Assembly (NCBI GenBank): GCA_964658305.1
Contig: OZ210885.1
Location: forward strand, 6,324,001 to 6,388,000
Direction of reading: 5' to 3'
DNA from: Leptogorgia sarmentosa
Taxonomy: Eukaryota
DNA length: 64,000 nt
Below the pieces are notes generated by a model, which did not search any database, was not told the origin of the DNA, and was given only the letters and a program-made list of their open reading frames with translations. Made by a program: the position numbers and the translations under genes. This document shows, in pieces, positions 23,765 to 56,619 of the stretch (the stretch's first letter is position 1; each line of letters starts with the position of its first letter).

Positions 23765-23855
23765 TATATATATATATATATATATATATTTAGTAGAATC
23801 ATACTCGTATACTATTGCAAATGCTGCAATTTGATTGGCTACTCTACTCGATATC

Positions 23856-25512
23856 TTTAGAGTTAGCTAGGAATATCAAAGAGGGGATGGACAAATTCAA
23901 CATAAAATCATCCCAGATTGAAGGAGGGTCGTTCGATGGTCAGTATTTTCATCTTGGTGTCCAGAAAGCCTTAGAATCACCAACGGTCTATGATCTACCG
24001 CCAAATTCTGTTTTCTGGGCTTGGGACGCCCTGCACAAAAGTGGTCTTGTAGATACCCACCTGTGTAAGGAAGAGAGATTCCAATGGCTTGTCAATGATA
24101 CGGAAGTGTGCTCCCAGCTTTTTAGAATGTTTAATTGGGGACAGAATCATGAAAAGCTAGTAGAAGCATCGGTGCTTTGGAAGCTCCACTTGAAAGAGTT
24201 AGTAAAGTTTTCAGAAACAAAGTTTGCCAACAGTCGTCGCCAGGTGTATATTAATATCCACCATGACTTACCTGCTATTATAACATGTCTAGAAGAGAAA
24301 ATTCTACTTTCTCATCAAAATCCAACAGAAGGGAAATTGAGAGAAAAGGCAGGTGAAGCAAAGGAGTTGAAAGGAAAATTGCTGAATGTACGATTCCTGT
24401 TAACACTGGCCGGTTGTGCTGATATTTATGATCAATATGGGAAGATAGTGAATGTAACACAAATTGTTAATCTTCTACCGCATGAACGCCTTGAGCTTTT
24501 CACGAAAGAGGTCAACGTGTTACAAGCTATGGTAAAGTGTCTTACCGACCACGAGAATTGTGGGAAATTTGTCGATGAAAAGGCCAAAGTAAAGTGCCTT
24601 TTCCCGATTTTTCATGATGACAAAGAGTCCCTGAGCACCAAAGGTGAGATTCGAAATGTTCCTGTTCTAGACCAAAATGCTGTTGTTGCTGCAGACTTAC
24701 TAAGCCGGACACGTAACATGAGGAGGCAAGCAACAATTTTGCAAAGTGTTAACGCAGAGAAACAAGTTGAGGAGAGATTGTCAATGCTCGTTTCAACATT
24801 GTATTCAGGTCTGAAAGACGAAGTGTTTGATGAACAAGCAGTCGCTACAATTGACCACACCAAAACTGTACTGAATTTACCAGACATTGCCTGTAGATTG
24901 AAAGCGCCAGACGGAGGACACATCAAGATCGCGGTTACCCAGGGTCCTGCTTTTGTCAATGCTGTCCGAGCAGTTCCTGTTCGATCTCTCAACGTTGTGT
25001 CCGATGACGAATTAAAGAGGCAGTACAGAGAATTCTTGAAACGATTGGAGGAATCAACGCGGCAATACTCTATTCAACAGCTACGTAAAATAGATCCAAA
25101 GGATATCCTAAAGCTGTTTTTCGATTCAGAGAGTGGTCTCTTTGTTGATATTGAAATGGTCATGCAAGCAATTAGCGTGTGCTGTGTCAAAATATCTTGC
25201 GAATCAGTATTGGAATCCCTTGTGTCGGTTTTCGAGAACCATTTTGATCCCAGGAGGAATATGAAGGAGGAAAGCACAACAGAGGAATTCACGATCGCTG
25301 TCAATGGACCTAGTCTTAGTCATGGTGATGCAGTTATCAGAGAAGCAATGACTTCATACTGGAAGTCCAAAGCCGAAAAAAGTGGTGGAAGCACTTCATG
25401 GCATTTCTTTAGAACAACAGTTTTGGAGCAGTTAAGGGGACACAGTGGTGGCTCTAAAGTTCTGGACAGGATGCTGAAGGGAAACAGCAAACTTCCTTTC
25501 ATGGATACGTAA
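23856..25512 (+). pseudogene. Divergent hAT-like transposase, N-terminally truncated
   Basis: GSFDGQYF, WDALH, FSETKFAN, SCESVLESLVS; lies between hAT-type TIRs. Confidence 0.7.
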
Positions 25513-28289: not shown

Positions 28290-29155
28290 TAGATGGTACA
28301 GTTAATAGTACTAGTCACTTGCAAACCTGCAACAAGCGATATTGAAGAAATTTGTAAGAAATTTGTACTTGTATGCAAGTGCGTAAAAGATGTGTGTGAA
28401 GCAGTGGTAAGACGGTTGCAATCTAGGTTTGTGTTTTTTCCAAGACAACACGAATTAGAAAACATAATAAATACATACAAAAGAATGGGGATTTCCTGCT
28501 TGTGTTGGAGCAGTTGATGGTACCCATATACCAATCATCGCTCCAACACAGAACTATGCTGATTATGTAAACAGAAAAGGATATCATTCTGTTGTTATGC
28601 AGGCTGTTGTTGACTGCAACTACCTCTTCAGAGATATTGTTGTTGGGTGGCCGGGAAGTGTTCATGACACAAGAGTGTTGTCGAACTCTGAAATTTTTAG
28701 CTTGGGAGAGGGGAATAAGCTTTTGTGTGAATGTTGGGGGCAAGGATGTTGCACCCTCTACCGCCATGGCCGTTACGACCATATTCAGAAAATAAAAACA
28801 GTAAGAAAGCAGAGGAGATTCAACTATCGTTTGAGTAGAGCAAGAGTAACAGTTGAAAATGGATTTGGCCAGTGGAAGGATAGATTTCGCAGATTTTTAA
28901 AAAGAGTTGGATTTGAAAAACTTGGTAATAATCATTGCTGCCTCTTGCATTCTGCATAACATCTGTGAGATGAATAGCGAGGAAGTTCTTTTGCAATGGT
29001 TGGAAGAATCAGACATAGCAAATGCAGATTTTCCTCAGCCAGATCGGAATGCCATGTATGATGTCAATGAGAGACAGGATTCAGTTTCTATAAGAAACTA
29101 TTTAACAGATTATTTCATGTCAAATGAAGGAGTTGACATTGGAATTAGTTCATGA
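28290..29155 (+). pseudogene. Harbinger (HARBI1-like) DDE nuclease, frameshifted
   Basis: GAVDGTHIPI, NRKGYHS..MQAVVD, GWPGSVHD, FNYRLSRARVTVENGFG, CILHNICE. Confidence 0.9.
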
Positions 29156-31447: not shown

Positions 31448-34400
31448 GTTTTTCCGTGGATGAATAGGTGGCGTGGATCTACTGCAGTTGAGCATGAGCA
31501 GTCTGATATATCTAACGGCACGGCACGCTGGCGTGTTTACACAAGCATCAAAACAGGTATGGCACTGCCTTTCAGGGTGCAGAGAATGACCTCTCAAGTG
31601 GTGCTTGGCACGGGTAAATTTTTGAGGGGCGTGTAAACGGGGCTCAAAACATGCTAAAAAGCGTGATCGTGAACCGTCTAGAATTCCTATGAAAAAGTTA
31701 GTTCATTTAATGAGCGAAAATAAAACAAGGAGGCCTAGAATAAAGAGGTTAATAAAGCAGTTCATTCCTAAATCGTCATGTTGGCACAATTTGCTCTCTA
31801 CAGGATATCGTAAACATGTAATTCAAAAACCTACAAATACAAACATGTGGCAATTAGGGAAACCTACAAAGTCTGCAAAGAACGATTGTGTTAAAAGGAA
31901 TTTGAAAATTGTTAGCAAGCATACTCAAGAACAAGAAAACACAAATTGTTTAAATTGAACAAGGCCAAGGTTGTCAACACAAGTAAACGCAACGCGCAAA
32001 GAACAAAAGCATGTGACACACTCCCTTCACCCGCACGTGCCGATACCGAATTGGATCCGGGTCCCGTAAATACTTCAGACACGTCAGTGTTGACGAGAAG
32101 ATTAGCTCGCATAGGATGAAAGCCAGTAAACATTGTAGGTGACGGTAATTGCTTCTTTCGTAGTGTAAGTCACCAACTTTACGGAACTGAAGATCGTCAT
32201 CCACAAATACGAGCTCTTGTCCAGAACATTTCGTGGAATATAATACTGATCAATCATCAATTAGATCTAGTAAAGTTTTGGAAGCAGCTCAATATGTAGT
32301 TCTTACCAGTGAAATATTTAGAAACGAAGGAATACAAGTAATGGAAAGTTACGTACCAAATCAAGTTGATAATAATGAAGAGGAGTGGTCAGAATTTATT
32401 TCCAAGGATGGACAGAACACCTCAGAAAACTTATCAGAAAATGTGAACACTCAAAGTGAAAAAGAAGTTGACACAAATACAAGTAATGACTTGATTGACA
32501 ATGATACAGATGACGAGTGGTGTGAAACAACTGAACGTTCATCAGGTGTTATGGATACATTATTGCAAGAACCAGACATTACTCAAGATGGTGATAGATT
32601 AATAAGCTTTGCACCAGGAGACGGTAATAGACCACTAGGCATATTTACAGACAAAGATTCTGAATTTCTTTCATTTCCCACTATTTATTGTGGAAAACGT
32701 CAAGCTGACAACAGCGAAACACTTGTGCGTGTTCACTATAGTACAATGTGTAAATGGGAATTACGAAGCAAAGATAGAAGAGTTGTGCAGTCTGTGCCAA
32801 ACATTTTTTACAAACTAAAGAAATTACAGATCAGTCAAATTCAAGGAAGTGCAAGTTAATCATTACTTAAGCGTAAAACTAAAGGTAAAACATACACTGC
32901 TGGAGATTTAAAGTCAGAAAGTTGTGTCAACAAGTTAATAAATTTGGATGAAGGATTTAGAGTTTTACGAAATAAGTGGATCACCTCCATATTTTGAAAG
33001 GTGTAAAAAAGATCTATTTCCCATGATTCGCCAGCTTGGTAAACCTACGTGGTTCTGTTCATTTTCAGCAGCTGAAACATGGTGGATTCATTTGATTAAA
33101 ATTCTTGCCCGCCTTATAGACAATAAAGATTATAGTGATGACGAAATTAAACAAATGACATGGCAAAAAAAATCTGAACTGATACAGAAAGATCCAGTAA
33201 CATGTGCACAAAATTTTGACCATATGGTACAGTTATTCATTCACGACATTATTAAAAGCCCAAGTCATCCAATTGGAGAAGTTGTTGACTTTTTCTATCG
33301 CATTGAATTCCAGCAAAGAGGTTCTCCGCATATCCACGGCTTATTCAGGATAAAAAATGCTCCTGAGTATGGTAAAGATACCAATGAAGATATTGCTGAG
33401 TTTGTCGATAGTTATGTTTCATGCAAAGGTGACGTGGATGATTCAACTGATCTGGTAAATTTACAAATGCATAAACACTCTAAAACGTGTAAGAAGAGAG
33501 GTCACGCCGTTTGCACATTTAATTTTCTGTTACCACCAATGCCAAGAACTATGATTTTAGAGCTTTTATATTGATGAAAATGTTGCGGCTATATTGAAGA
33601 AAGCTTTAGAACGAATATGTGAGTTATTAAACTCCATCAAAGCAGATGAAACCATGACATTTGTTGAGTTTCTTCAAAAGCTAGGTTTATCAGAACAGCA
33701 GTATATAAAAGCCATAAGGCTTTCTCTCAAACACAGTATGCTGTTATTGAAACGATCACCATCTGAGATTAGAGTAAACTGCTACAATCCAAACTTACTC
33801 AAAGCTTGGCAAGCTAACATGGATATTCAGTTTGTTATAGATCCTTATCCTTGTGCTGTTTATATCCTTACATATATTACTAAAGGTCAGAGAGGAATGA
33901 GTAAGGTACTTCGTAAAGCATTTGAAGAAGCAAAAGAAGGCAATAAGAATATTGTTAACAAGGTGAGACATATTGGTAACAAGTTTCTAAATGCTGTTGA
34001 GATAAGTGCACAAGAAGCGGTTTACTTAGTTCTCCAGATGCCTTTGAGAAGATCCTCTTGAGAATTCCAATTTATCAATACATCCGATCCAGATGAAAGA
34101 ACATTCTTATTAAAAAGCATGGATAAGATTAAAGAACTTCCTGACAATTCGTGTGATATTGAGTCAGACAACATAATTAAAAGATATCAGCAATGACCAA
34201 AGCAATTGGAAAATGTATGCCTAGCAGATTTTGTTGCATGGTATAACTGCAAAAGTGAGGGTAATGAGCAGATGAAAGCTAAACGAGACACACCTTCAAC
34301 AGATGTATATCTTGCAGAAAATAATGTGGATGATAATTTAGATGATGATCTTTCGGATTTGGAGCAAAGAACTGATAAGGATGAATATCAAATGAAAGGT

Positions 34401-35310: not shown

Positions 35311-38300
35311 AAAAGGAATGCAGCCTACGGCGTTGGAATACATATCCGAATCCACTGGCAAAACTCGCTGAAATCGGGTCGTACACGACAGCACAATGTG
35401 CAGATGTTCCTGGACAGTAAATAAGAGAAGAATCAATATATATATACCTCCATCGCGTCGTTTTGAGTGTCTTGCGAAGCCACAGAAGGCGGTGCGGCCG
35501 GTTTTTCAACAGGCGGAGGTTCTTGATCGACCACGGGGCCGTGATGAAGTTGGGCATCCGGAATCACTTCATCATGAACAGCAGGAAACTGGATGTCTGG
35601 CTCGGCCATGATTTTCGTGGTCGTAAAAAATTGTATAAAGAGACGTTCGTCCACTGAGCTATATTATTAATCTGGAGATCAGGCACTCCACTGAAAGGTG
35701 TCGCCAAAAACATGGCGGATTTTACGTCACACGTCCCCTATTCTCATGATGGTAATTACTGACCACAGTTGAAGTGTGTGCAGGCGCCGTTTCCACCCCC
35801 CCCCTGGATTTTACTGTTTGTTACTATATAAATATATATGCTGTAGTGTTGTTTTGATATTTTTTCAAAGAATTGAGATAAAGTATTAAAATTCTCTTAC
35901 ATCTCAAAAATATATTGTTGTATTTGTTGATGTACGCGTCTATAAATACAGAACGCGATTGATTAAGGAAGACAGGAATGGAGCTTACTGCTTGCCTGAC
36001 GGCCACCACTGAGCTATAAGAAGACGTTGTTTCATTTTATGCAATTCATATGTCATTTTTATTTGCATTGAAGAATAATATTTTATCAAAAAATTTCCAA
36101 GATAATGATATAATATTTCAGGATATACAATAATATATTCACATTCAAATCACAACAAAATTATTTTTTATTTTAAAACACATACAACACAAGTATGAGT
36201 AAACAAGTTGCTCAACCAATTCTATGGATGTCAATCCCCATTTGCTCAGCACCTAATTTTGCTGGCATATTGACTTTGATTTGCCAGCACAACTAAGAAA
36301 TAAATACTTATGGAATTGTGTTCACTTTCTAGTTTAATTTGATGCTTTCAACTTCAAAATCAATGTGAAATGGTCCAGTTATGTGGCAAATGTGATTGCA
36401 CTCATTAATTTGCATTCAAGAGAATTAGATATGCATAGAATTGATTGAGACAAAATAAATATATTAATACATTAGTAATCAGATTAAATTTTAACTTACT
36501 TATTTATTATTTCCTTATTTATTATTTCAGCTACTGGACATTGAAGAACAAATTATTAAAAACTATGTACAACAACTATTAACAAATGAATTAATTATAT
36601 TAATTAGTTATTTAAAACAATATTATTATTGAAGAAATCATTATTAAAACTTAGTTATTATTAAAAACAATGTCATGGCACCCATGCCAGTGGTGCACTG
36701 AACCTTGCTTCCTCCCATCTTTTTGGGGGCATGTGAATCTTGTATGGCCTTGCTTGCCACATGACCAGCATAGCATTCCTGTTTAATATTAATCAACAAT
36801 AAATGTACTGTACATGTTTCACGAACAGTGTAATTGTAAAAATCTGGTGAAAATAACCTCAAGTTTCACCCATGCAAGATTCCTACTGTGATGGCAGAAA
36901 CTTTGATATTGTAAACTGGCCTTCAGAGACTGTTGTAAATAAATTTAAGCATACATACGACCTTTAACAAAACCTGTCTTAGCAGAAAAACGTCTCGAAC
37001 GATGTATAAGCATAAAATAAAATTTCCCTACCAGTGTGACGACAGTTGTTTGTTGTCAAAGGAGTTGTGACAGCCGTAAACATAGCAAAAATGTGGCATG
37101 TTGATAATCAACAATAAGAATTTAAAAAGAATATATCTGTTTGGTAGAATCACACTATATATAGTATACTATTTCGGATGCTGCTCGTAATATAATCATA
37201 TAATATAAAGTGCAGAATTTAGAATATGCATTTAGATTTTACTTTTTAATATTCCAGGCGTATTTTGATCTAAAAACGGCTGAAAATATATATACCGTAT
37301 ACAAAATTCCTTTTTTTACAGAGATTGGGGGAACAGAAAAAAGTCAATGAGCAAGTGCTGAAATCTTTGTCTGACATCTCCAAATCACTGGAAAGTTTAG
37401 AACGTCGTATACAGCAGTGTGATACCCAAGGACCGATTAAAAGAAACAACCGGAAATGCAGACTTTCTCCAGAAATCAAGGTGATATATACCGTTTTTCA
37501 ATTAAATACCACAAAAAAATGAATAGGCTTGCATTAAATAAGGTTATCGTTCCTGCATTTAAGCATGCAGCTTTCTTGTACCGAAATGCGAAAAATTTTC
37601 GTTTGACAAAAATTGACAAGGCATATGGGATATATTGCCGACAATTGAAGCAATGGGTAGAAACTCGGTAAAACACTGTCACATTTTCATTGTCATTGAA
37701 ACTCGGTAAAACACTGTCAGTATCATCGCTGTTCAGTAGGTCGACCAACAACATTCTTCTAGGATGTTTAAGGGCAAAACGGTCTATTACTTTGTCTAAA
37801 TCGAGTTTAATTTCACGATGGACATTTAATAACGCCAACGATCTCAATCGTTTCTCACCCATTGTGCTTCTCATGAACGTTTTTAATCGTCGGAGTGTAG
37901 AAATAGATCTTTCGCAGCTGCATGTCGTGACGGGGATGGTGCCAAAAATATGCATGGCTGTGAGAATGTTTGGGAAGGAAAGTGCATCAGTTGTGGAAAT
38001 AAGTTGTTCAAACGATGATGGAAGAGGAGGTTGTTGATGGGAAAACTTTAGTTTCCACATACGTAACTCACATTCGAGAAAGTCGATATCTGGTAGATCA
38101 TCTTTGTATTTCTTTAAGAAACGCAGGAAATTCTCCTTCCAGTTTGGATCAGAAACAACTAAGTTCGGCATTCCGTACATCATGTCCAAAATATCCAAAT
38201 TTCCTTCAGAGAAGTGTGACTGTACTTGACCAAGCAGTAGATCCAAAAAAGGGATAGTCACTGCACCTTTATAATACTCCGATGTGGTATCTGCAGGAAC

Positions 38301-39733
38301 ATTCTCGCGATGAATTTGCTGACCAGCCGTTCTCTTCTTATTCGGATCAATATTCACTTCTTTGGCCAAATCTAGTGCCATTTGGTAGAAGGTATCGTGT
38401 GTTTGGTCAATGTTGGTGCGAAGATCATCTATGGTTAGGTATAAAAGTGACACTTTTTCCCTAGCCTTTCCAGCATCAAGTGATTTGGATTGGAGTTGAA
38501 GGGTTAATGGCTTCGTGCACTTCAGACAACGTTCGGCCAGAACAAGACAGACGATAAACTCGAATTTCTTCACTGCTTTTCTCATACCACCAGCTCTTTA
38601 GCGAACATCTGCCTCGTAAGATCTGTCGTTGTTAATCGCTTCTAATGCTGCAAGAATAGCCACATAGCAGTTTTTAAAAATCTTTAAGCCATCAATTCTT
38701 GCTATCCAGCTGGTCCGGCAAACATTAAGCAGTTTTTTTCGTCTAGCTGTTGGTACAATTTCATTGATTTTTTCCTTCAAAACCAGGTTGCGCTTTGGCG
38801 AGTCGTTGAAAAAATTTGACACACTGCGGATGTTATCCATCATGTCCCGGACTATCGGTATTCGGCAAGATGAGAGTTACAGTGTACATAAACTGCTTTC
38901 TCGTAAATTCTTTGGATTCGAGTTGCAACTCCGGAATATTTTCCAGCCATGTTTCCCGCCCCATCGTACCCTTGACCACGACAATCTTCCATACGTAGTC
39001 CAACGCTTTCAACGAAATTAGAAATTTCCTCTGCCAAAGCTTCCCCAGTTAGACCCTTCTGACAAGGAACAAAACCAAGGAATTCCTCCCGTATGTCGAA
39101 TGATCTGTCCACGAATCGCAGAGCCACTGCCATCTGTTCAACATTAGAGCAATCAGTTGCTTCGTCAGCTAAAACAGAATAGAACTTTGCTTGCTTAATT
39201 TCTCCAACAAGTACTTCGGTTATCATTTCACCACAGATTTCCAGGATTTCATTTTGTATAGTCTTCGATCGGTAGGTTTGGTTGGAAGGACAATCTTTAA
39301 AAAGTAGGTCCATTAAATCTCCACACCTGGCACCATACTTTAGGATCTCAATGAAGTTTCCAGGGTTTGTCACATCTTCATCAACATAGAACTGGGAATC
39401 GTCTCGGTGACCTCGGAGCGCGATATTTTGTCTACCACAGGTTATAACTGCATCAACAATCGTGCGAAGTCGAACTCTGTTTCTTTCGATTATCTCTCGA
39501 CGTGCATTATTGACTTGGACATCAATTGCTTTGGTTTTGTTTTCCATTAACTGCTTAAATTGCAATGCCCGGATGGTTGCTGTCTCATGAACTTTCGATT
39601 TATCGGCATGCTGTGTTAATTTGTTGATGGAAGATGTTGATGGAACAAAAGGTAAGGTCATCAGTCGTTGCAGTTTGGAAGCGTTATGCGTGCCCTCCCC
39701 ACCAAATAAAACACAGTTGACACAGAAGCCACC

Positions 39734-40038
39734 TGTTACCACCGTTGGCAGCGTATGTAAACACAGTAAATTCACACGATAAACAACGTAAAATTCAATT
39801 AATTTACTCCAAATTAGCTTCAAATTTTGTCACTTTAGTAACACTTCACAATTGTATCATCTCATATTAATCATTCTAGTACGTTAAAATCGGTTTGTCC
39901 ACCACAGTTCAAACAAAAATATAATTTCTAACTAAATATCCAATTCGCTACAAGATGGCGGTGTATTTATTCTTTCTAAAGTCACGTGAGTAGGTCGGAA
40001 ATGAATATTAAATAACAGGAAGTAAAACGGTAGTTACA
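39734..40038 (-). repeat. 3' LTR of the BEL element
   Basis: Identical to 45257-45561 except for one C/T. Confidence 0.96.
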
Positions 40039-40119: not shown

Positions 40120-43100
40120 TCAATCCAATTCCAAAAGACATAACTTGTTAACAGGACGTGTCAGAATGGTAGAGGTATCTTTATATTCACCCTTTCTTTG
40201 TCGCTTCGCTTTAGTAGCTACTGTTGAGCTTGTTTTCACTCTTACAGTACGAACAAACCCATCTCGACTCGGCAGAACCTCCGTGACCAATCCAAGAGGC
40301 CACTGTCCTCTGGGGAAGGTTTCGTCAGCCAAAAGGACCAAGTTTCCTACTTCCATGTTTCTTTTTGGTGAAGCCCATTTCTTCCTTTCTAACATCGTTG
40401 GTAAATATTCCTTCATCCATCTACGCCAAAGAGGTCTGCCAAGTACTGAGCTTGTCTCCACGAACGTTTGGAATTAAGGTCTTTTTTGCTAAATAATCCA
40501 GGAGGTAGCGCTGTGGTTGGTCGTAGGTGCAATAAATGATTAGGAGTTAGCGGTTCATCATCAAACGAACTGTCACTATTTCGTGTTAGCGGTCTGGAAT
40601 TCAAAATATTCGCCACTTCCGCCATAACTGTGAGGAGAATTTCATCTGAAACAATCTGTTCCTTCAAAATAGCGCCTAGCACTTGTCGCACAGATCTAAT
40701 CATCCGTTCCCAAACGCCACCCATGTGGCTCGCCGAGAGAGGATTAAAGATCCATTCAATCTTCCTTTGGATGCAGAATTGGCCAATCTTACTCTGATTC
40801 CATTGTTCCATAATTTGATTCAGCTCTTTATTTCCACGTACAAAGTTTGTAGCACGGTCACTCCTAAGGAGCTCCGGGCATCCGCGAATGCAAATAAATC
40901 TTCGCAGAGCATTTATCATCGAATCTGTGTCTAACGAGTGCGCTATTTCTATGTGAATAGCTCGTGTTGTCAAACAAGTAAATATACAGCCATATCGCTT
41001 GACGCGTGATCTTCTCTGTTTCACTTGCAGAGGCCCAAAATAATCGACGCCAACATAGGTGAATGCTGGTTTATCTGGGGTAAGCCGTTCTTGCGGTACC
41101 TCGCCATGAGCTGCTCTGATAATCTTGCCTTTCTTCATTGACAGCTTATGCATCTCTTAATCACTCTTCTGACCGCTGATCTTCCCTTGATTATCCAAAA
41201 TTCTTGTCACAAAGACGAAAGAACGGACTCTTGGCCCATATGACCCATGAATCTATGATGGTGCCGAGTAATCATATCGGTAATATGGTGTTTATAAGGC
41301 AGGATGATAGGATGTTTCAACTTATCGTCAACCTGGGCGTTGACTAATCTTCCTCCGACTCGTAATAAACCGTCCTTAATCAACGGATTTAGTTGATGGA
41401 TGGATGATCCTGACTTTCTAAGAGTTCTCTTTGTCGCACCCCTGGACACATAAAGGCCAGTATGTGATAGGATTTCCAACACATCGGGAAAGGCGATAGA
41501 CTGAACGCGTTTAAGAATATCACGTTCCGCTGCATTCAGGTCACTCAGGGTCAAGTCTCCAAACCTTTCCTTTGTGATTTCGTTTGATGTAAACTTGTTC
41601 TCTTTCTTTACAGCTACCTTAAGTCGAAGGTAGTTCTTATACCGCAACCACCAGGCGACTGCACGTTTCAATCTCCACCAATCCGAATAGAACGAAATCA
41701 ATTCATCCAAACCGTTACAACTCACAGTAGCTGAATAAATTTGGACTTCCTTTCTGACTTCAGGATCGTTGTCCTTTAAGATCGGAATCTCTTTCATTCG
41801 AGGCCATAAATTCTGGTCTCCCTTAAGAAATTCAGGACCCTTTAACCAACGATCATTCTTGAGCATGTCGTTTAATTTTAATCCTTTCGAACCGTCATCA
41901 GCAGGATTGTTGTCTCGATCGACGTAGTTCCATTCCGAGGGATTGGATCCATTATGAATTATAGTCAAGCGGTTCGATTCAAATGTGTAAAACCTTTTCG
42001 TTTGATTGTAAATACACTTTAATACCGACATTGAATCAGTCCAATAACAGGCTCTTCGTATCTCAACATCCAACTCTTCGCAAATGATTGTAGATAGTCT
42101 TACAGAGAGAACCGCAGCGGTTAACTCTAACCGTGGAATGGTTATTTCGCGTAGCGGAGCCAATCTTGCTTTGCCCATCACAAAGGCGATGTGAACATTG
42201 CCAATCGAATCTTTCAAACGAAGGTATGCCACTGCTGCGTATCCGACTCGCGAGGCGTCCGAGAATAAATGCAACTGGATCTCCACAATTTCCTGAAAAT
42301 CCAGTGGTTTGAAACAGCGATCGACCTTAATCGATTCTAGCTTTGGAATATCTTCGAACCAGCGTTTCCATTGTGCGTTCTCGCTTTCATCTTCTACTTC
42401 ATCCATAGAAATAACCACAATATCAATCAATTGACTTCTTACCACTGTTGATCCAGTCATACCCGATAACGTAAAGTCAAGATTCTCACCAGTCGCACCA
42501 AGTTTCTTCATTAACTGTTCATGGCAAAGAGTCACTTCAGAACCACTGTCTAATAGAGCATAAGTCTTGACTGGTGGCTGAGTTGTCCCCTTGACTCGAA
42601 TCTTGACTGGAATGACACTGAGACACACCTTCTCACCGACCCCAGTTGCCGCACTTGACTGAAGCTTTTCCCTTTCGCTCACTCCTTCCTTCGGATCAGG
42701 CTCTGTGTTCGTACTCTTTGACACTTGACATTTACTGTTCCTATTGTTATAGAAATGAACAGGGGGATGCATCAATGTGTTATGTTCTTGGTTGCATCCT
42801 TCCTTCTGGCATTTAAATTGTGTCTTTGGACATACTCTTGCATAATGACCACTGCTCAGGCACTTGAAACAAAGGTTGTTATCTTGGACAAATTTCCTTT
42901 TATCCCGATATGATAATTCTTTAAATTTGTCACATCTCCAAACTCTGTGTTGACTCGAACACATAGGACACTTGGGTTGACCAGCTGCATAACCATCCTT
43001 ATCCCCACTTCCGGTGGCTAGCGTGGAATAGCGTGCATAACGTCTTCGGGAATCCTTGTTTTTTACAGTATCATTCTTGTCCTTGAATACTGTGGCAAGA

Positions 43101-45009
43101 TCTTCCCCGAATTCATTATTCACAAGTGTCGCCCTTCGTTTGACAAACTGAAGAAAATCTTTAAACTTCGGTCTTGATCCCAACTCAATCATTTCTCCAG
43201 CTTTCTCCGTCCATTTTATTCTCATAAACATTGGTAACTTCCGATTCAATGATTTCAATGTGTTGACATGATTTAATTCTTCAACGTACTCGGGACCCAT
43301 GCCTGCTAACGTTCTATCCGCAACTTCAAGTTGTCTGGCAAACTCTAACAAATTTTTTCCATCAGCTTGTTTCAAAGGGTTTAAATTCTCCAATTTCTTA
43401 AGATGTGCCTGTGCAATAATATGCGGTCTCCCAAAGCTCTCACGCAATGTCTCTTTAGCGATTCGGTAACCTTCACCTACAGGTAGATTGACACAGCTTT
43501 CTACTGCTTCTCGTGCTTGACCAGTACAATCCTGGATCAAAAGCTGTAGTCGTCTGGAACTATCAGGATTATCCTTCTCTAAGCATGTCTCAAAGTTATG
43601 AATGAATGAAACATAGTTTATTGGATCCCCATCAAAATGCATATACTTAATTTTGGGAGTCGAGACAACTTGACGCAACGCTTGCGCCACTTCTTCACCT
43701 GTGCTCAACTCTCGTGATACCGCTTGGTGTTGATGACCCACATGTAACGGAGGAGCTTGTGAAATTCCAGACCAAGGCATATTATTTCCTTCTGGCGGCC
43801 AATAACTCGCATCGTCAACACGCAGCGGTGATAGTCTATCCTGCTGATTAATTGTGCTGAAAGCTTCTGATTGTAAACGTCCACCTTCCCGAGATAATTC
43901 TGGACGTTCTGAGGATCTCTTTGTCATTATATCTCCATACGGGTCCTGAGTAAAGCCAGTGTTTAATCCTGTACTAGTCTTCAGGTCCTGTGAATTTCGC
44001 CAAGGTCTAGGAAACATATTTACGCGAGTTGCACCTGCTCTTAACTGTGGTACATAAGCCCCAGTACTCAAGCAATGATCTTTATAAGGTTTGTTCATAT
44101 AGCCGCTTATGTTTGCCCTTGATTGTGCTGGTCCTGTTGATTCACCTATCTGGCCACTGTTCACGTCTGTAGGTAAGATCAGGTCAGCAGCCTCATCAAG
44201 TTGATTTTCCGTCAGCTGCCATTCTGGTTCAAATTGCTGAAATCGCACCTTACTTCCCTCGCACTGATCAATGTTCTGCAGATCTTGGTCTTCACAACCT
44301 TGTTCATACATCAGACTTACTGCTGCACGCTCCTCCTCCATTTGTGCTTCCAACAAATCCTTCTCATATTTTAACTCTGCCATCTTTCGGTCTAACTCGT
44401 GTTGCTTTTTCAATTGCCTTTGCTTTAGCTGAGCCTGAACTACCCTCTCAGCCTTTACTGATACAGACGATACAGTTCCACTTGAACGAAGTGTTCCAGA
44501 ATTGTTACTACGTTTAGTTTTATGTGATACACGACTTCTTTCTTCAATTTCCGTTTATCCACTCTGTGAACTATACACCATTGGTCAAATTCCCCATCAA
44601 AACACAATTTCCGCACCTTTTGTCTTTCGTAACTAAGAAGCGCCTTTTCCTTCTCTTCTTTCGAGAGAATATTTTCAAAATATTGTTCATGAGCATTGAT
44701 AAATTTTTTCCAAGCTTTATCATACTTATCTTTTCTTGACAAAACATCATCATATGGGCCATCCGCACACATAACAGCTTCAATACCTCCTTGAATTCTT
44801 GTCAAGTTACTTATATGTCCTGCTCGAGATTTAAACAATGAATGCGTTTTCTCAGCCATGTCTTCTTCATATTCCCTCCTTGTCTTCGGAATTCTCTGCC
44901 TCAGCCTTCTTCTCGGATCGGCCATAACACCAGTCTCAGACACTGTCTCTCTTCGAGTCTCATTGTTCAAATCTTCTTTATTGGATATTAAACAAGAATG
45001 TGCAGACAT
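40120..45009 (-). pseudogene. BEL gag-protease-(RT deleted)-RNase H-integrase polyprotein
   Basis: Three Cys/His knuckles, ALLDSGS protease, LHLFSDAS RNase H, VGVDYFGP / SDRATNF / GGVWERMI integrase. Stop at 41207 and several frameshifts. Confidence 0.93.
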
Positions 45010-45256
45010 TTTGTTTTCTTTTATAATTCAATATGCAATATGCATCAACATTTCAATTGTTAATTAATACTTCAGCATTCAAATCACTTTGTCACAAAGT
45101 TCAAATTAAATAATAATGACGGATTCCAAATAAATGTTGATAACTTACACAAACCATAACACTTGGCTGCTCACAATCAACCAATCCAATTCGTCCTTTA
45201 CAAGAACGTAAATAGTCCACTTTAACCAACAAAGTCGAACGGAAACCGATTTTAAC

Positions 45257-45849: not shown

Positions 45850-47055
45850 CTGTTGATGAACTTGATGATTTGCCTGATGATTTTACGATGGGTGCTAACA
45901 GTGATGAGCATGTATCACATTATGCAAATGATGAGTCTCTAAAAGATCTACTGTCAAACTGGGCAAGCACTCATCTTCAGCAAGGGGAGCAAATACGAAT
46001 GAAAGTTTGTCAGAAATTTGTTTGGCAAGATGTTCTTTTGAAACTTGACAGACTTGAAGAAGGCAGTCATAACAAATCCATTAAAGTACAATTTGTTGGG
46101 GAACGATCTGTAGACCAATGAGGGGGGGGGGGGGAATGAGAACTTTTTACTCTTGTTAATCAACATGTTGAAATGACCCTTGTGGCAAATGAAGTCTTTC
46201 GACATAATGTTCCAGCATTAGAAAAGAAAGAATTCTTACGATTCAGGCAGCTCACAGCATTGGGACTATTACAAGGTTCCCCTGGAGCTAAATTTTTTTG
46301 TCCTAGTGTGATAAATTATATCCTTTATGGAACATTAGAGAAATGCACACCAACCATTGATGAAATACCATGTGGGGAAATTAAAAGTTCTATGGAAAAC
46401 CTTGCAAGACTCACTGATGAAGAAGCTTTTAAAGAGCAGGCCTCATTCCAGTGCAGTTTTAGATTTGATGCTGGGTATTCAAAGCCATTTGTAACTATCA
46501 CAGAAAGATGAGTTTTTCAGATGTATTGCATTGCACCATGTAGTTCTAGTGAGTCTTACTGAGCTAGAGCAGTTTATAAGTGGTCTTAAAAATTGTAATG
46601 TCTTAGAGATTATTCGTACCAATCCAGATGCATTTAGAATACTGTTTGAGCCTTCACATCAGCTTATAGCTGAAATAGTAGATGACGTTTGACCCGGTAT
46701 TCAGTCCTGTTGTTAGTACAGCATTTGTAAAGGAGCAGGCTGTTATGTTTAATTTTAACCAGTTACTTGAAGGCATAGAGCATGGTAAAGTTAGTGTTGA
46801 TGTTGATGACCAGAATTTCACTTTCAGCCTTGGTGATATTTTGCAGTTTGTTACAGGTTCTAGAGATGTTCCTGCAATAGGTTTTATACCACAACCCAGT
46901 ATTATATTTCTCCATGGAGATAATGCTAATGCAAAGTTGTCAGCAAACACTTGTGCAAACATTTTGAGATTCCCTGTTAGTGAAAAATTGCTTATATATC
47001 CTGATTTTAAAGAAGACATTTGTATTGTAAACTCTCCTGGTTTGGTAATCCATAA
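45850..47055 (+). pseudogene. G2E3-like HECT E3 ligase domain, frameshifted
   Basis: VQFVGE..VDQ*GG, LLQGSPG, DILQFVTGS..VPAIGF, ANTCANILRFP (catalytic Cys motif). Confidence 0.8.
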
Positions 47056-47329
47056 CTACGGGATAAGATCATTATTGTTATATACGTTTTGTTTTACATA
47101 GTTGTTAGTGTTATTTCATATGGGATGATAAAAAAATAATGCCATATCCCTTTAATCTCACAATGTAGCAATACATTTACATGCAAGACATTGTATATAC
47201 TTATATTGTTTCTTGTTAATGTTGATTTATATTAGATATTACATTTATATTGTTTTGGGAACTTTTTGTCATACTTATTGTCATTGTATTCATTGGCATT
47301 GGTTGTTAATAATATTTAAGGTTGCCCTT

Positions 47330-48439: not shown

Positions 48440-49718
48440 GTGCTAAATCTTTTAATTGTGCAGTACTGCCGGTATCAAATTCACGCAATACATAAAATAT
48501 AGACCACATGCCCAATGTGTATGATCCCGGGCACTTAGCCTACCTTGTGTTTTGAGAATTTGTTAGTGTTTTCAATCTTTGGGGTTGTGTTTTGAGAATT
48601 TGTTAGTGTTTTGCACTTGTGGGCTACCGTAATATATAGAAAAAATTCCTATTACATTTTCTCAGGACAAGTAAGTGAGAACTTGATGAACTTTCATGAA
48701 TTTGATCAACCGAGCAGAAAATTATATTTACACATATGACAACACCCAGTGTAAACAAGGTCAGAAGACTGGCACTAGAAACTGACAGGAATGTTCAGTG
48801 GCAACAAAAACAGGATTTTGTAAAGTTCTTTCTAGGACTACGCTTCACATCAAATAAAAAACTATATATTTACTCTTCGGTTACATGAATTTTTATTACC
48901 ATGATTATTTACCAAAAGTCAATGTAATACTTGTCATATTTTTTAGTCAGTTTTGACTAAAGAAAGTGCATCTAATGTATTGTCGATATTTCTTCATGCC
49001 CGTTAATGTTTGTCCCCATAAAACGTTATAGATATTCTTATATTTGGTAGATTACATAAGCCAGTACATTCCGCAACAAAAAAACGTTAAAAAATGTTAA
49101 TTTCGTTCCTGAAATTTCAGCTGTTGATGTGCAAAGAAAGCAAAAATGTTTGGAGACGCCCCTATATCCTCCCTGTAATGCACTTGTCAATTGTAACCCC
49201 CACCCCCCCAACCTCGGGATATGGTGGGGGAATGTGGGGGATTTTTCCCGTTTTGAAACATTTTTAAGCCCGTATTGGTGGTGGTTTTTCTCGTTATGGT
49301 TCCCCGACCTCAAAAACGGCCGAGTAACCCAAAAAAGCGCCTGGGCACGAGCTCGCAATTTATGGAATTATGCATAAATTATGCATTGAGTTATGCATAA
49401 ATTATGCATTGAATATGATGCTCTTTTAGTCTTTTTATACTGTTCTCATTTCGGACTATACAGTTCCCAAATTTTGTCGTAACAAAATCAACGTTTTTAT
49501 AGACCATCCTTTTTTTAAAGTATTTTTTTCCACATTATACCATTATAAAAGGTAAGAACACAATGTGTCTGTGGAATTTTTTGCACTTTAACATTGAAAT
49601 ACTGTCAAATTTGTTTGGGTCATGACCTCTTAATTTTAATATTTGCATTCATGTAATCTTTTATAAATACTCGCAACAGTGCGTCATCATCACGAGGGAA
49701 ACTATAATTGAAATATTC

Positions 49719-51823
49719 ATGAAACCTATGAAGGTATGGTCTTCGGACCGGACGCAGAAAAAATTCCTGGCTGCAAATACACTCTCTGATGTGCTTTCCA
49801 AAGGTAAGACCTACAATCTTGGACAAAACTAGTTGAGACCTGGTATAATAATCATGCCTGATTTTCGGGTAACCCCTCTCCCCCGGTTTGAGAGCTTATT
49901 GTTGCCACTCACTTTCAGCGGCCCTGCCCCTGAAACCATAAATACATTTTTGTATGTTCTGTAGGTTCACAGAAACTTGGTATAGACAATCCAGAAAGAG
50001 TGGTACTGGAGGAAGATGGGACAGAGGTGGATGAAGATGTTTTTGAGTTCCTAGAGAATGGAACAACGTTAATGATTTTGTGTACAGGGGAGGAATGGGC
50101 AAAACATGTTGAAGGTATATCTTTTAATATATGTACAGTACCATATGTATATATATATTGCAACATTAATATAAAAATACCACGAATTAAAGCAAAATAT
50201 AATATATATAGCCTAAATGATTATTTAAATTTTCGGTTGCATGCCACAACCTTCGTATATATTTGTTTACATTATGCTTTTGTAATGTGTCTAAAATTAA
50301 TTGTTTTTTACTGTCATTATGCAATGGTGGTGTTCCTAAAGTGTTACATCAATTTATTATATAAGTTGATCAATTCATTTGCTCAAAAATTGCTCAACTT
50401 CCTGTTATTAGCGTACTTGTTCCCAATTGGTCAATCAGTCACTGAAATGAAATGCCATTGGTAACCAAAGGCATTTCATTTCAGTGACTGATTGACCAAT
50501 GTTCACACACAGAAGAAGTTGATCAATTTTCAATGAATGAATTGATAAATTTTAGATATTTAGGAACACTTCCATTGCAACAACAGTGAAGATATTTATA
50601 AATCAGCTTTGCAATGATGTTTTGTTTATTATTTTTGGTTTTTTAGAGATATGCATAACACCCTTGTTCATTTGTAAAATGAAATAATTCACATAAAAAG
50701 TGTTTTGAAACAGTTATTTTAATGTGTACTTGTTATTTCCTTGCATTTTGAAGGAACTGTACCTCCTGCACCTACATCTACAGGAAAGGAGCTCCATCCC
50801 GTGGAAATAATTCCATCCGCTAAAGCTAAACTAAAGTGTACCCAGCGTACATTAACAAGTGATTTATCAAAGCTTGGACCAGCTATTCAGGTACATATAC
50901 AGTACGATATGTTCAGGCATTTGCAAGTATATAATTCAAGTACCAAAGATTTGTACTCAATTCAATAAAAGGATTAACCATTTTGGCAGTGATGGATTCC
51001 CCAGTATTCATTTAGCTGGTAATCTCTGCAAATGAGGTATTTTTTATTTGTTTTCAACGTAATTAAGAGCTGCATTCTCATTATTCTGCATTTCATTGAC
51101 ATACAGATTGATGAGACAGAAATTAATGCTAACCAAATGGAAGTGACAGTTCCTACAATTGAACTCCTGGAACAAAGCAAGATATATCATTCTGAAACGC
51201 TAAATCCTTATCAAAGTGCCATCAATAAAGCAGCTTATGAAATTTGTTCTGAAAATCCAATGTTAATGAAGCAAAAAGGCATTCTACTTGAGGCAGCACG
51301 TAAAAAAGTAAATGCAGATGGCTACCAGTATGCAAAAAAATCATCCCGATCAAAAGTTTTTGGAACATCTGCGCAGGCAGGTTCAAATGCTCCTACAGCA
51401 AAGAAGTGTCGTTTGTCAACAGAGATAAGGAGTAACAGAATCCAAGAATGTCAAGAAGATCTTAAAAACATTGAACTTCAATTAAAATTTGCAGAGCGAG
51501 CCCAAGAAAAATTTGCCAACATACACCAATATCAGTCAGCCATTGGTGCTCTTAAAGAAATCAAAGAAATGAAAGAAAAGAGGCGAGATATACTTACTGA
51601 ATTAGGTAGTCTCCAAAAGAAAGAAGCTAAATCTTTATGTTACAAAAACAAGAGATCTCATAAACAACAGTCATTTACACAAGATACAACTGCCTCGAAT
51701 GGAACAATTGATTCATATTTTCGGGATACAAGTACACCTTCCAATGGCTCGGATACCAGTAACGCAGATGAGTCAAGTGTGGAAAATAGTGAAGCTGATA
51801 ACCCGCCTTTTTTAGAAATATGA
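49719..51823 (+). CDS. ORF1: CIDE-N domain plus basic/coiled-coil protein, 362 aa (exons 49719-49803, 49965-50114, 50754-50890, 51107-51823)
   Basis: MKVWSSDRTQKKFLAANTLSDVLSKG|SQKLGI...VVLEEDGTEVDEDVFEFLENGTTLMILCTGEEW matches the CIDE-N pattern. All GT-AG junctions are in frame. Confidence 0.8.
50305..50595. repeat. Foldback palindrome in intron 2 of ORF1
   Basis: 50426-50500 is a 75-bp palindrome with one mismatch; imperfect arms extend outward. Confidence 0.9.
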
Positions 51824-54800
51824 ACTCAGTGGTCGTTGAGCAATTTACTGAGAATACCGTTGAAACAGACATTACTAAAACTAAACATGTCTCAGAGAAT
51901 ACATTTTATCAGGAGAAACTGAAAACGTATACACTTTTTAAAGCGAGTGGTGTTGGAAAAGATTACAAAATAACAGATGGAATTTATGTTTCACCTCTGA
52001 ACAATTTTACTTTGGATGATTTTGTTATAGTTAGACAATTGTTTTGTTCTGGCAGGCATACCAACGGGTGCTTGGAATGTTCACGTTTGTTAGAATTTGC
52101 CAGGTTGGTAAAAGATGGCGGAATTATAGAATTTGCTGCAACATATCGAACAATTTATCCTCATTTAGTGTACAAGAGCGATTTGGCAGTGAGAAAAATG
52201 ATGCAAGCACCTTTATGCGTGTTCAAAATGGCCACAATGGGTCACGGAAGCGAGAAATTGTATGTTACTGAGAAGATTGCTAGTGTAGATTACAGCTCTT
52301 TCATAACACTTACAAAAAAAGTGTGGCAAACACAGAAACCCAGTACTACTTTAGACAAAACCGCTCTAAAAGAACTTTGTAATTTGGCAAGCTCAGAGAA
52401 AGACAAGCTTCTTATTAAATATGTTTGTTGTAAATCTCAGAATTTGTCAATGAACAAAGCACGGCAACTGTACGGATTCTGGAACTTCAATCAACAAAAA
52501 GAGAAGATTAACAATGCTTTGCTTGAAATGAGAGAGATCCACGATGTTATTGAAGAACTTGCGGCAATAAAAGATACAGCGGTCTTGCAAGGGTTTGGAA
52601 TATGTGTGGAAGATGAACATTCAAGCAGTGAATCAGAATGTTCGTTGTCAGATGCAGAAAACTCAGAGATTGAATGGATATCTGAAGAAGAGAAAGACCA
52701 AACAACTCCTTCACGACTGCCGTCAGATGATCAGCTATTGTCTATGTTGAGAAACACTAACTTTAACTGGTTTGCTTTTATAACCGAAGTAAAAATGCTT
52801 TTACCAAACAATAGCGAGAATACATTGTTGGAATCCCTGGAAGAATTTTCGGGTCGACTTTCTGTTTTAAATGTGTCTGCCGAAGATCAGTTAAAAATTG
52901 AAACATCAAGACAAGCTTACTTCGCACTTGAAAAAGACAAAGCTATTCATGAATCATTGTCAGATGAGGACGAGACTAGTTCTAGAGATATTTCGGAAGC
53001 AGTTAGAAAACGAAGAATAATGTACAGAAGAAAACACGTGCGACAAAAAGCGAAAAGGATGGCTGAAGCACGTCTACTAAAAAGAAAACTGCCGAAGCGT
53101 GTATCCCGTATTTTGAAGAAATTTCCGAACATTGGAAAGGACGTTGAAGAGTTTGTAAGTGGAAAAAGAGTAGGGGCTGATGCGTGGCGTAGGACTGGGG
53201 TGCTCACCTTTGATGGAAATATAAAGCAGGGACCAAAAGTGACATACAAGGGTATCCAAAATCATCTACAAACAAAATATGGAATAAAGATCTCATATGG
53301 GACTGTCGTGCAGCTTTCAGTCATAAGAAATAAAAGGCGTCTATCGGCAAAGAGGTATCGTGGTGTCGCACGTATCACCTGTAGAAGAGCAAGAAAAGGA
53401 TTTTCCATAAAAATGAATCCTGATGCTCATTGGAATACCGCTATGTACAGGAGTTTGGATTACCTTCAATTAAAAAATGGCACAGAGCAACTGGTTTTAA
53501 ATCGAGATGATGCTGCAGGGTTTAGATTAGATACAACTTTTACGCATAAGCAACACAAGGGCGTTCAGCTGTTGGACAGCCACGATCTAACCTCTAGAAC
53601 TGACTACATGAACAAGTATACTTCCGTTTTGCAAACGACATCGTATCTTTTTCCGTCAACGTCGTCAACTCCTCCAACGTGTATTGGTGTAATTAAGCCA
53701 CATGTAATTTTTGAGAAGAATCCAAGTCAACATATGGCAGATCTTAACATGCTGGCAAAACAAGAACAGAACACAGCAGTGTTTAACCGATTGTCTGACG
53801 GGCAACGAAAAGATATATGGTACGTTCGCGTTGATGGAAGCAGTGATGAAGGCCCTGTACACAAAGAAGTGCAATTCCTGTGGACGGAAAAACATGTCAT
53901 GGACAATCACTCATGCACTGTGGTGACAACAAGGCACTCGGGTGGATCCTATCTCAACTCTGTGGAACTAATGAACGGTTGCCTCTCCGTGGCACACAAC
54001 AATTGCTTTATACCGTCAACACTTGGTGGACCAGTTGAAGATGAAAATGGGATAAACACCGAACAACTTAAACGTAATCTAGATTTGGCAGCAGATGTGT
54101 ATATTTCCAGGGTTAATGGTGCTCCATGTTGTGGCACCACAGTTCAGTTATGTAAAGGAAACCGAAGTGATTGCGCACAGAAATTATTGGGAAGAAGACA
54201 AAAACTTTTGACATTCTTGCACGGAAAGGCGATCGAAAAACAAAAGCTTTTGAAAGATGAGCCTGATATATTCCACTATTTTAGAAAGGTTTGGGATGTT
54301 TTCAATAATCACATGGTACCATCAATCCCAAAGCAATATGCACTTATGTTATTGCCTTGTTTTAAAGAAGGGTGCATCCATCCGCTGTGCAAAACAGGAA
54401 AACCAGCCATTGAACCACATTGCACGTGGTTTCCAAATGGCCCCCCTCTGTCGTATTTCCCACTACCCATTCCTGATGTCGATCGACCTTGGGGTGGCGA
54501 TTGTACCAGCTGTTCGGGTTTTTGTGCAGGACATTATAAAAAACCAGAAGATGCGCGGAAGAGTTATCAGGAAAAAGACAAGACAATCTGCCAAATTAAG
54601 CCTCCATCAGTGACGTTACTAGAACGTTTTGACGAGAGTGTGAAGAAAGGATTTGATTTGCTCGGGGATGAAAATAGGATCAACGAACTTGCAAAACAGG
54701 TGTTATTGACTCCAAATGAGGTGAAAATGTGGCTAAAACATCTAAAAGCAATTAAGTTAAGGAGGAAAGAGGGAGCGAAAAAAGCGGCTGCGACGAGAGC

Positions 54801-55484
54801 TGCTAAAAAAGGTATAAACTTTTTTCTAATTTGTATTGTTTACACAATCAACTAATATTAGGTATTATTTATCTTATAGCCTTACATGCACAAAATAACT
54901 CGGCAACACCTGCAAATGATAGAGAATCTTCGGCAGCAAATTGTCCATGCGGTCTGCCTGACAATGAAGACAATATGATTGCTTGTGAAAATCCAAAGTG
55001 TGATGTTGAGTGGTATCACATTTCTTGCGTTGGGCTCGATGAACTGGGGGATACAGATTTAGAGAATTTGGAGTGGTATTGTCCAGCATGTGAAGGTATG
55101 TGTGAGTCATGTAATGATTCTATCGTAGTACCTTTATTTAGGGTGTCATATACCTTGCATTGTTTTTTTATTTGGTATACTGTACAGTACTAGTCTTTGA
55201 AACAATTACATATTTACAGTAAATATGTATATAATTAGCTCTCTTTATGTATGTAATTAGCTCTCTGCATTTCAATGCTAACAGATAATGAATCCTCAAA
55301 CGACTCAGACAATGAAGACAGCTGTCACTGCGGGAGACCAAACAGTGCGGAGGAGATGATTGGGTGCGATGGTGATGATTGTGAGATAAAATGGTACCAT
55401 TTCAGTTGTGCTGGATTAACTGCAGAAACAGTTCCAGATGGAGAATGGTTGTGTCCAATGTGTTCAAACATGCTAACCAGCTAA
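51820..55484 (+). CDS. ORF2: Zator-like DD43E transposase plus two ING-type PHD fingers, 1135 aa (exons 51820-54811, 54880-55095, 55285-55484)
   Basis: [33 protein letters not shown](43 aa)-SYLNSVE. PHDs CPC...[17 protein letters not shown]...WYCPAC and CHC...[15 protein letters not shown]...WLCPMC. Both introns are phase 1 and keep frame. Confidence 0.8.
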
Positions 55485-56619
55485 CATTGTTAATATTGAA
55501 TTTTTATAATTAACTAATTTGGTTATTTGTATGCCTAGTATATAGCATGGATACTTAAATAAATGGGTAAGAAACTAATGTCATGTGTGATATTTTCAGG
55601 GTAGTGGTTGGTTTAGGTGGTGTTACTGACGTAACAACCTTGTTGAAACCTTGTTGACAATCATGCCGTCACAAAATGTCTAAATATCTCACGTTTTTAC
55701 AGCAATACAGTTAAAATTGATAGTCAAACAACTATGAACATTACAGTACCATTGTACAGTACAATATCTTGATATTATTACTCCTTTTGGACGCCATTTT
55801 CTTCACAAAACAATGTATGCACTTCGATTCTCAATACAGCTACTTAAACTCGAAAAAATGGAAGATCGGCAAAAACTTCAGAGTCTAAACCTGAACAGAA
55901 ATCAAAGACTTGTGACGTCACGAGACGCAACCTAGGTTCAAACTGCTGATGTCATCAGTTTCCTATCCATTTTTTTATGGTTATAGCATAAGCTGTTTAT
56001 GTATTTCGAGTTAAAAGACTTTTCAATCCAATTTTGGAATTTATATGTTGTTAATGTTATTAAAAAGGTGAATGATTGTCTAATTATTTCCCCAATGGGG
56101 TGGGAGAATAGTCAATTCACTCATCCCTATAGGGTGGGGGTATTTAAAGTTATGGTAGCATGAAAAATCTATGTCCCCACCATATCCCGAGGTTGGGGGG
56201 GTGGGGGATACAATTGACAAGTGCATAAGTCATCTGTCCAATCATATGTATTAAAAGTTACTTGATGACATATAGTGTCATTGAGAGTTTACTTTGATCA
56301 GAACCATATATGAACTTGAAGGGATTCTAACACTACATGCATTACCAAGTGGCATTACCCCAGGTTGGAACACAATCAATCTTTTGAATGATGAAAATGT
56401 AAATATTGTATATAATTTCCATATTTTATAAGTTAGCACATGAGGCAGAACAACCAAAAAAGTCACCATGTTGCCGTACATGTAAAAACCCAATGAAGGG
56501 ACATCTGCAAGGTCATTGTGCATGGAGAAATTCCATAGCATTGTTGCAAATAATATTATCATTCATATAACAAAATATATTTTACATGTATTAGAAAACC
56601 AAAAAATTCATTAATCTAC

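Follow-up and report, generated by a model that had tools for sequence, protein, structure and literature searches.

How a DNA transposon whose coding capacity is divided between two overlapping reading frames could make one complete transposase is the question raised by a locus of Leptogorgia sarmentosa (contig OZ210885.1), which was analysed here within a stretch of 64 kb, referred to as the window. Judged from its sequence, the segment 49179-56225 is an intact-looking cut-and-paste DNA transposon of about 7 kb, bounded by two 51-bp terminal inverted repeats (TIRs; 49179-49229 and 56175-56225) with 1 mismatch and flanked by TAA on both sides. The gene model contains five introns, all of them GT-AG, and two open reading frames (ORFs), ORF1 of 362 and ORF2 of 1135 amino acids, with 0 internal stops. 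In these points an earlier note on this DNA, which had reported near-perfect 51-bp repeats, the TAA duplication and two spliced, stop-free ORFs, was found to be correct. It had also treated the ORFs as separate, and the NCD2-like domain in the first and the slippery -1 overlap between them had gone unnoticed; ORF1 and ORF2 are probably halves of a frameshift fusion rather than independent genes. It is quite likely, to judge from the letters and their conservation, that a single spliced mRNA yields the full transposase through programmed -1 ribosomal frameshifting. The conserved signature of this shift is the most surprising part of the element.

The junction between ORF1 and ORF2

The features of the window copy on which the argument depends are the following:

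51808..51814, plus strand: slippery heptamer T TTT TTA, read in the frame of ORF1; -1 shifting is predicted here (from the sequence)
51821-51823, plus strand: ORF1 stop TGA, end of ORF1 exon 4
51825..51852, plus strand: 8-bp stem (CTCAGT...ACTGAG), weak candidate stimulator, starting 10 nt 3' of the heptamer
51802..54811, plus strand: ORF2 exon 1, -1 frame open from 51802, first ATG at 51820 (51820-54811 when ORF2 exons are counted from the ATG)

The same arrangement is seen across the family. Both parts were available for 25 loci (24 of the 80 loci fetched and the window), and ORF2 stands in the -1 frame relative to ORF1 in 23 of them, with an ORF1/ORF2 overlap of 10-55 nt in 19. The signals at the junction were examined in 16 non-redundant overlapping loci, near-duplicates L003, L035 and L011 and six non-overlapping loci being left out. 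With a relaxed pattern, an in-frame U-rich heptamer was found within the last 10 ORF1 codons of all 16 loci, compared to 24 of 192 control windows; it reads T TTT TTA in five loci, G GAT TTT in five and A AAT TTT in three, and is imperfect in three. A -1 frameshift cassette has a 3' stimulatory structure about 5-9 nt downstream, and a hairpin with z<-2 follows the heptamer in 10/16 loci versus 0/112 ORF2 control windows, starting 3-11 nt past the heptamer and differing in sequence between loci. According to an excerpt of a published paper, U_UUU_UUA is the shift site of human immunodeficiency virus (HIV), and G_GAU_UUU is used by a plant virus where a stop is close by (PMC5009743). Five of the non-overlapping loci were additionally inspected by eye and three of them carry a heptamer and a hairpin. 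A natural in-frame fusion is also present in the family: the protein P0046 (1431 amino acids) joins an NCD2-like domain, ORF2 and a PHD finger through the linker QDFS, which is like the Asp-Phe encoded by G GAT TTT shift sites.

In two relatives, L011 and L014, GT-AG introns of 493 and 100 nt are missing that the near-identical loci L010 and L016 contain, and the two therefore look RNA-derived. The junction is left unspliced in both, and it was thus shown that ORF1 and ORF2 are co-transcribed in these two relatives. For the window element itself splicing is that of a predicted gene model, with no RNA runs listed for this copy and no spliced joints in the eight sequencing runs compared with it. 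At the heptamer no indel is listed in four other runs and gap-free contigs cross the site in two more, so the break on the T run is not an error.

Several observations weigh against programmed frameshifting. The window stem, 10 nt past the heptamer, has a z of 0.0-0.17 and is no better than shuffles; a base at 51832 in four other runs lengthens it, changing its energy from -8.3 to -10.5 kcal/mol. The six of 25 loci without overlap stood outside the heptamer and hairpin test, and neither junction signal was seen in L037, the stretch viewed of L049 ending short of the junction. The heptamer pattern was defined post hoc, once the data had been inspected, and among the 16 loci there are seven pairs whose DNA is 66-80% identical in parts of the junction region. 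Splicing of L011 is incomplete, and its junction might still be spliced later. Finally, the window ATG at 51820 overlaps the ORF1 stop (ATGA), as it does in L014, and ORF2 could be translated alone in this copy; in many loci there is also an AG behind the U-run, as a splice acceptor would have.

The best surviving alternative, though an unlikely one, builds on the first of these last two features and assumes two independent proteins, with translation of ORF2 beginning at its own ATG, either by reinitiation after termination at the ATGA or on a transcript of its own, and with ORF1 as an accessory protein, as in two-gene superfamilies. Apart from the ATGA overlaps of the window and L014 and the weakness of the window hairpin, it is favoured by the occurrence of the ORF1 domain and ORF2 together in just one of 269 proteins examined (P0046); however, gene callers would miss frameshift fusions. 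In the remaining 14 of the 16 loci the first Met lies 21-115 codons downstream, and in three of them (L018, L021 and L026) the first Met of the ORF2 frame is found 3' of the conserved CxxxHxxxCxxC motif. Independent translation leaves the fixed -1 frame, the heptamer and the hairpin unexplained.

Improbable to a further degree is the explanation that the U-run and AG form a 3' splice acceptor and that an alternative intron removes the ORF1 stop, joining an upstream donor to ORF2. The window has a T-rich tract followed by AG (CCTTTTTTAG), and an AG is placed no more than 7 nt from the heptamer in 13/16 loci; nevertheless, the first AG is in phase 1 in eight loci, phase 2 in seven and phase 0 in one, and in three loci its distance is 11-19 nt. 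Since an intron that is conserved stays in a single phase, such variation counts against an acceptor. Moreover, the donors of the window ORF1 are of phase 1, 1 and 0 whereas its AG needs phase 2, the spliced contigs L011 and L014 retain the junction, and a 3' hairpin is not needed by an acceptor. That one long ORF was broken by a one-base homopolymer deletion or sequencing error (a dead copy), or that its frame is restored by transcriptional slippage, may hardly be credited, decay of the window copy being already disfavoured: the break does sit on a T run and the in-frame fused relative P0046 exists, but the same -1 break recurs at the same place in elements with ORF2 about 37-49% identical to that of the window, indels are absent in other runs, the spliced L011 is gap-free against L010 across the site, and the U-run is just 4-6 long.

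If programmed -1 frameshifting operates, translation would mostly end at the ORF1 stop, releasing a protein of 362 amino acids with CIDE-N, the NCD2-like domain and a helical hairpin, while a minority of ribosomes would slip at U_UUU_UUA and produce a fusion of about 1,500 amino acids, extended by the zinc motif and the DD43E core as well as the homeodomain-like fold and both PHD fingers. The shift would keep the transposase scarce, by analogy with IS3 and IS630, and the abundant ORF1 protein might regulate the fusion or co-assemble with it via CIDE-N (via SAM in one relative). The fusion would then excise the element at its TIRs and integrate it at TWA, and its PHD fingers may bias insertion towards chromatin. 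A role for ORF1, assembly through CIDE-N, targeting by PHD fingers and present activity are all matters that we infer.

Anatomy and domains of the element

The remaining features of the element are listed below:

49176..49178, no strand: left target-site duplication TAA (sequence)
49179..49229, plus strand: left TIR, 51 bp, starting TGCAC; the same TGC(A/G)C end motif occurs in relatives
49719..49803, plus strand: ORF1 exon 1, carrying the beginning of CIDE-N (splicing predicted); CIDE-N halves match in L005 and L027
49965..50114, plus strand: ORF1 exon 2, remainder of CIDE-N (PF02017, E=4.7e-13)
50426..50500, no strand: palindrome of 75 bp (37-bp arms, 97%) in intron 2; three runs have loose ends at 50363-50530
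50754..50890, plus strand: ORF1 exon 3, predicted linker, no Pfam match
51107..51823, plus strand: ORF1 exon 4 with NCD2-like domain (~51152-51349), long helical hairpin and low-complexity tail (profile and model)
~52045-52080, plus strand: CxxxHxxxCxxC motif, followed by a helical region, the DDE core and the homeodomain-like fold, all in ORF2 exon 1
53506..53967, plus strand: catalytic triad D563 (53506), D672 (53833) and E716 (53965), on beta1, beta4 and alpha4 of the predicted RNase H fold
54598..54774, plus strand: homeodomain-like three-helix domain, ORF2 residues 927-985 (structure model)
54880..55095, plus strand: ORF2 exon 2, PHD finger 1 (PF00628, E=4.6e-7)
55285..55484, plus strand: ORF2 exon 3 with the second, ING-like PHD finger and the stop codon (PF00628, E=2.9e-8; ING4, E=2.7e-14)
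56175..56225, minus strand: right TIR, 51 bp (sequence)
56226..56228, no strand: right target-site duplication TAA (sequence)

The palindrome is probably a small separate repeat. Ends starting with CAC, which would be CACTA/Chapaev-like, were ruled out, no duplication for them being present in the sequence.

CIDE-N, known from apoptosis and lipid-droplet proteins, had been noticed at the start of ORF1 before and its presence there is confirmed by the Pfam match. The constant part of ORF1 across the family is nevertheless the NCD2-like exon. For exon 4 of the window the match to PF04905 (NCD2) has E=1.4e-4 and remains below the cut-off, and a family profile of ORF1 built from 22 sequences matches the NAB1 structure 2yuf with E=7.9e-11. 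Foldseek comparison of the ORF1 domain with PDB gave no match at E<=0.001, only helical-bundle noise. CIDE-N was present in 7/18 loci scanned, in a scan which covered 150/179 ORF pieces, L070 partially, with L071 and L034 left out. In L014 ORF1 has a SAM_4 domain instead of CIDE-N, followed by NCD2 (L014:294-543 and 419-1168); both CIDE-N and SAM domains self-associate. This order resembles the layout of NAB corepressors and may raise the possibility of a shared origin.

In ORF2 the 43 residues separating the second D from the E, counted in the earlier note, were found again between D672 and E716. The alignment of 91 sequences (the window and 90 of 120 listed relatives) has D563, D672 and E716 invariant in 91/91 and a D-E spacing of 43 in 89/91. 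The AlphaFold model, with a predicted local distance difference test score (pLDDT) of 83.5, puts D563 on beta1, D672 on beta4 and E716 on alpha4 of an RNase H fold; by model and secondary structure this is the placement by which DDE enzymes are recognised in an excerpt of PMC5718144, where the two D residues sit on beta1 and beta4 of such a fold and the E on a later helix. When the core was compared with 48,161 chains, the best structural matches were Mos1 (Z 9.9, root-mean-square deviation (rmsd) 3.2, 170 aligned) and Metnase (9.8), with Sleeping Beauty at Z 8.1 and retroviral integrases within about 1 Z unit of the best matches. The fold of the core is predicted to be mariner-like. Foldseek search of ORF2 against PDB returned no match at E<=0.001 and only weak RNase H-fold rows. 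The helix previously read as homeodomain-like gains support from the model, in which the stretch 927-985 superposes on the Meis2 homeodomain with Z 8.3 and rmsd 1.4 over 54 aligned positions.

The two PHD fingers had been called ING-type; Pfam confirms both as PHD, and the best PDB matches of PHD2 are ING PHDs. ING-type reading of H3K4me3 depends on an aromatic cage of Tyr, Met and Trp. The window PHDs are closest to those of ING, keeping the cage Met and Trp, with Asn or Ser in the Tyr position. The first aromatic cage residue is aromatic in 13/17 family PHDs and absent from both fingers of the window, a point against histone reading by this copy; because this N-terminal residue is missing, H3K4me3 targeting, proposed in the earlier note, is a weaker guess for the window copy, even if the ING-like character of the fingers stands.

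The family and its optional modules

With ORF2 residues 400-997 as a query, 425 proteins were matched among 7991 candidates. Named hosts of relatives are Paramuricea, Montipora, Exaiptasia and Lytechinus, i.e. corals, an anemone and a sea urchin, and several family proteins are publicly annotated as YNG2 chromatin proteins. A profile search started from representatives gave nothing but family members among its best 150 matches. The ORF2 relatives P0135, P0165, P0167, P0196 and P0270 are more distant, keep the NRDD, DG and NxxE motifs in a partly altered form, and possibly come from outside animals.

Paired TIRs were found in 5/80 metagenome loci. Identical TWA stands at both ends of four of these five complete relatives, the fifth (L022) having TAA and TTA. 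Matches to the end motif adjoin TWA in 14/15 cases, and the family ends are TGC(A/G)C. Among the complete relatives, L021 has neither CIDE-N nor PHD, L022 has PHD only, and L027 and L033 have CIDE-N only; PHD2 gave tblastn matches in 16/80 loci, many of the loci being truncated. CIDE-N and the PHD fingers are optional modules, not fixed parts of the family. It can be said that the multi-domain architecture described for the window copy is real there, but it does not extend to complete relatives as a rule, since one or both of these modules are missing from them.

A second copy of the element was not found within the 64-kb window. Near-identical copies are present in sequencing runs (X1-X20) labelled as six organisms, that of run X12 having 23 differences in 1261 nt compared with the window; such a distribution could reflect close species or horizontal transfer. 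In run X4 the right TIR is placed next to a different flank, starting TTA, and one element is common to L021 and L034 (96-98%), the match beginning at the TIR. No clear empty insertion site was seen in the sequencing runs compared. In run X1 the ends 49206-49861 and 55609-56046 were covered at about twice the depth of the core, a hint of non-autonomous derivatives, and core and ends were both covered more deeply than the flanks, although depth here gives no copy number.

The window is rich in transposons, and other observations made along it are as follows:

1435-2175, plus strand: DUF7708 match
13718-15517 and 37476-39829, minus strand: hAT transposase pieces (Dimer_Tnp_hAT, DUF4371)
16623-17300, 28471-28959 and 32942-33574, plus strand: DDE_3, DDE_Tnp_4 and Helitron-like fragments
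23797-25512, plus strand: ORF of 571 amino acids, no Pfam match
40413-45027, minus strand: BEL/Pao retrotransposon ORFs (DUF1759, Peptidase_A17, rve)
46682-47101, plus strand: weak HECT fragment

Comparison with known systems

The element had been assigned to a divergent Zator lineage. The divergence and a mariner-like DDE core stand, as does a probable relation to Zator/ISAzo13, whereas membership is not established, with TP36 profile comparisons not significant and ends other than GG. Kinship is likely on the basis of motifs, TWA and language-model neighbours, the proteins compared being those of bacterial ISAzo13/TP36; the family works like Zator/ISAzo13, its membership being unproven. Zator has GG ends and a preference for TWA, and for the DD43E spacing ascribed to it in the earlier note no confirmation was found in the literature searched. 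Target duplications of 3 bp are given for Zator and ISAzo13 in an excerpt of PMC10045372, and the present family likewise has a 3-bp TWA duplication. For comparison, 65 ISAzo13 loci were examined for ends and 57 aligned (PF07592 confirmed in 3/3 tested); they have GG ends, TWA in 6/18 with a detectable inverted repeat, and a D-E spacing of 42. Likeness is found at the first D (NRDD in the family, SVDT in ISAzo13), at the second (VDG and ADxGG) and in a GxSxxNx[VI]E motif at the catalytic E, with spacings of 43 and 42. Neighbours in the ESM Atlas are unnamed eukaryotic clusters first, the nearest named ones being PF07592 (0.86 and 0.84), and these are leads only. In profile comparison by hhalign with TP36/ISAzo13 nothing was significant (E 0.3; 0.25-0.37; 0.06 on a segment with the wrong register), the profiles being shallow with an effective sequence number (Neff) of 3-4, and no PF07592 match was found in the Pfam scans made. 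Searches for Zator-type references gave none in viral contigs, one chance match in a motif scan and nothing significant with tblastn in phages and plasmids; a search from the distant relative P0167 found 3 proteins with no Zator reference among them, and the NCBIfam search was uninformative. The family differs from ISAzo13 in its TGC(A/G)C instead of GG ends, and from Zator and ISAzo13 by a length of about 7 kb, the presence of introns and of two ORFs, additional domains and the -1 overlap.

Tc1/mariner transposases (Mos1, Metnase, Sleeping Beauty) are the best structural matches of the core and differ by the DD43E spacing of the family, its homeodomain-like fold after the core and an identity of 6-12%. 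Membership in Tc1/mariner was ruled out because the duplication is a 3-bp TWA and not a 2-bp TA.

NAB1 and NAB2 corepressors, built from a SAM-type NCD1 and NCD2, share with the transposon ORF1 the NCD2 domain and, in L014, the order SAM_4 and NCD2. In contrast to them, the NCD2 of the transposon is enclosed by TIRs; a helical hairpin follows it, and what precedes it is usually CIDE-N or an unknown region.

In the literature neither this layout nor -1 frameshifting of an animal cut-and-paste transposon was found described, with most subscription papers, Repbase and Dfam outside the search. Chances are about even that the family is an undescribed, widespread animal transposon lineage, possibly a superfamily of its own beside Zator, in which a DD43E transposase, optionally equipped with histone readers, is joined by a retrovirus-style -1 ribosomal frameshift to a NAB-type NCD2 and an exchangeable polymerising head, either CIDE-N or SAM, and that its form with SAM and NCD2 may share an origin with NAB corepressors. 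If frameshifting is true, the dose of transposase in the family would be set at translation, gene callers would mis-split hundreds of loci, and the family would offer many natural shift cassettes for testing. The presence of CIDE-N and the NAB NCD2 on a mobile element bears on the origin of those host domains, and with its intact TWA-targeting transposase and PHD fingers the element offers a case in which chromatin-guided insertion can be tested.

Programmed -1 frameshifting is well known in viruses, long terminal repeat (LTR) elements and bacterial insertion sequences (IS), and the shift of Euplotes is +1 and host-wide. Among eukaryotic DNA transposons a precedent for frameshifting is set by the ciliate elements TBE of Oxytricha and Tec of Euplotes. 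Both are said to need it in an excerpt of PMC5009743, which gives no -1 heptamer-plus-hairpin cassette for them, and they differ from the present family in having ciliate hosts. In IS1, IS3, IS5 and IS630, as the same excerpt describes, an upstream ORF overlaps the catalytic ORF at -1, the fusion is the transposase, the short upstream product can regulate, and the level of the shift sets transposition (PMC5009743). The present family is like these elements in its upstream ORF overlapping the catalytic ORF in the -1 frame, and unlike them it is eukaryotic and spliced, carries CIDE-N or SAM, NCD2-like and PHD domains, and would use eukaryote-type U-rich shift sites for a frameshift that is, in its case, predicted.

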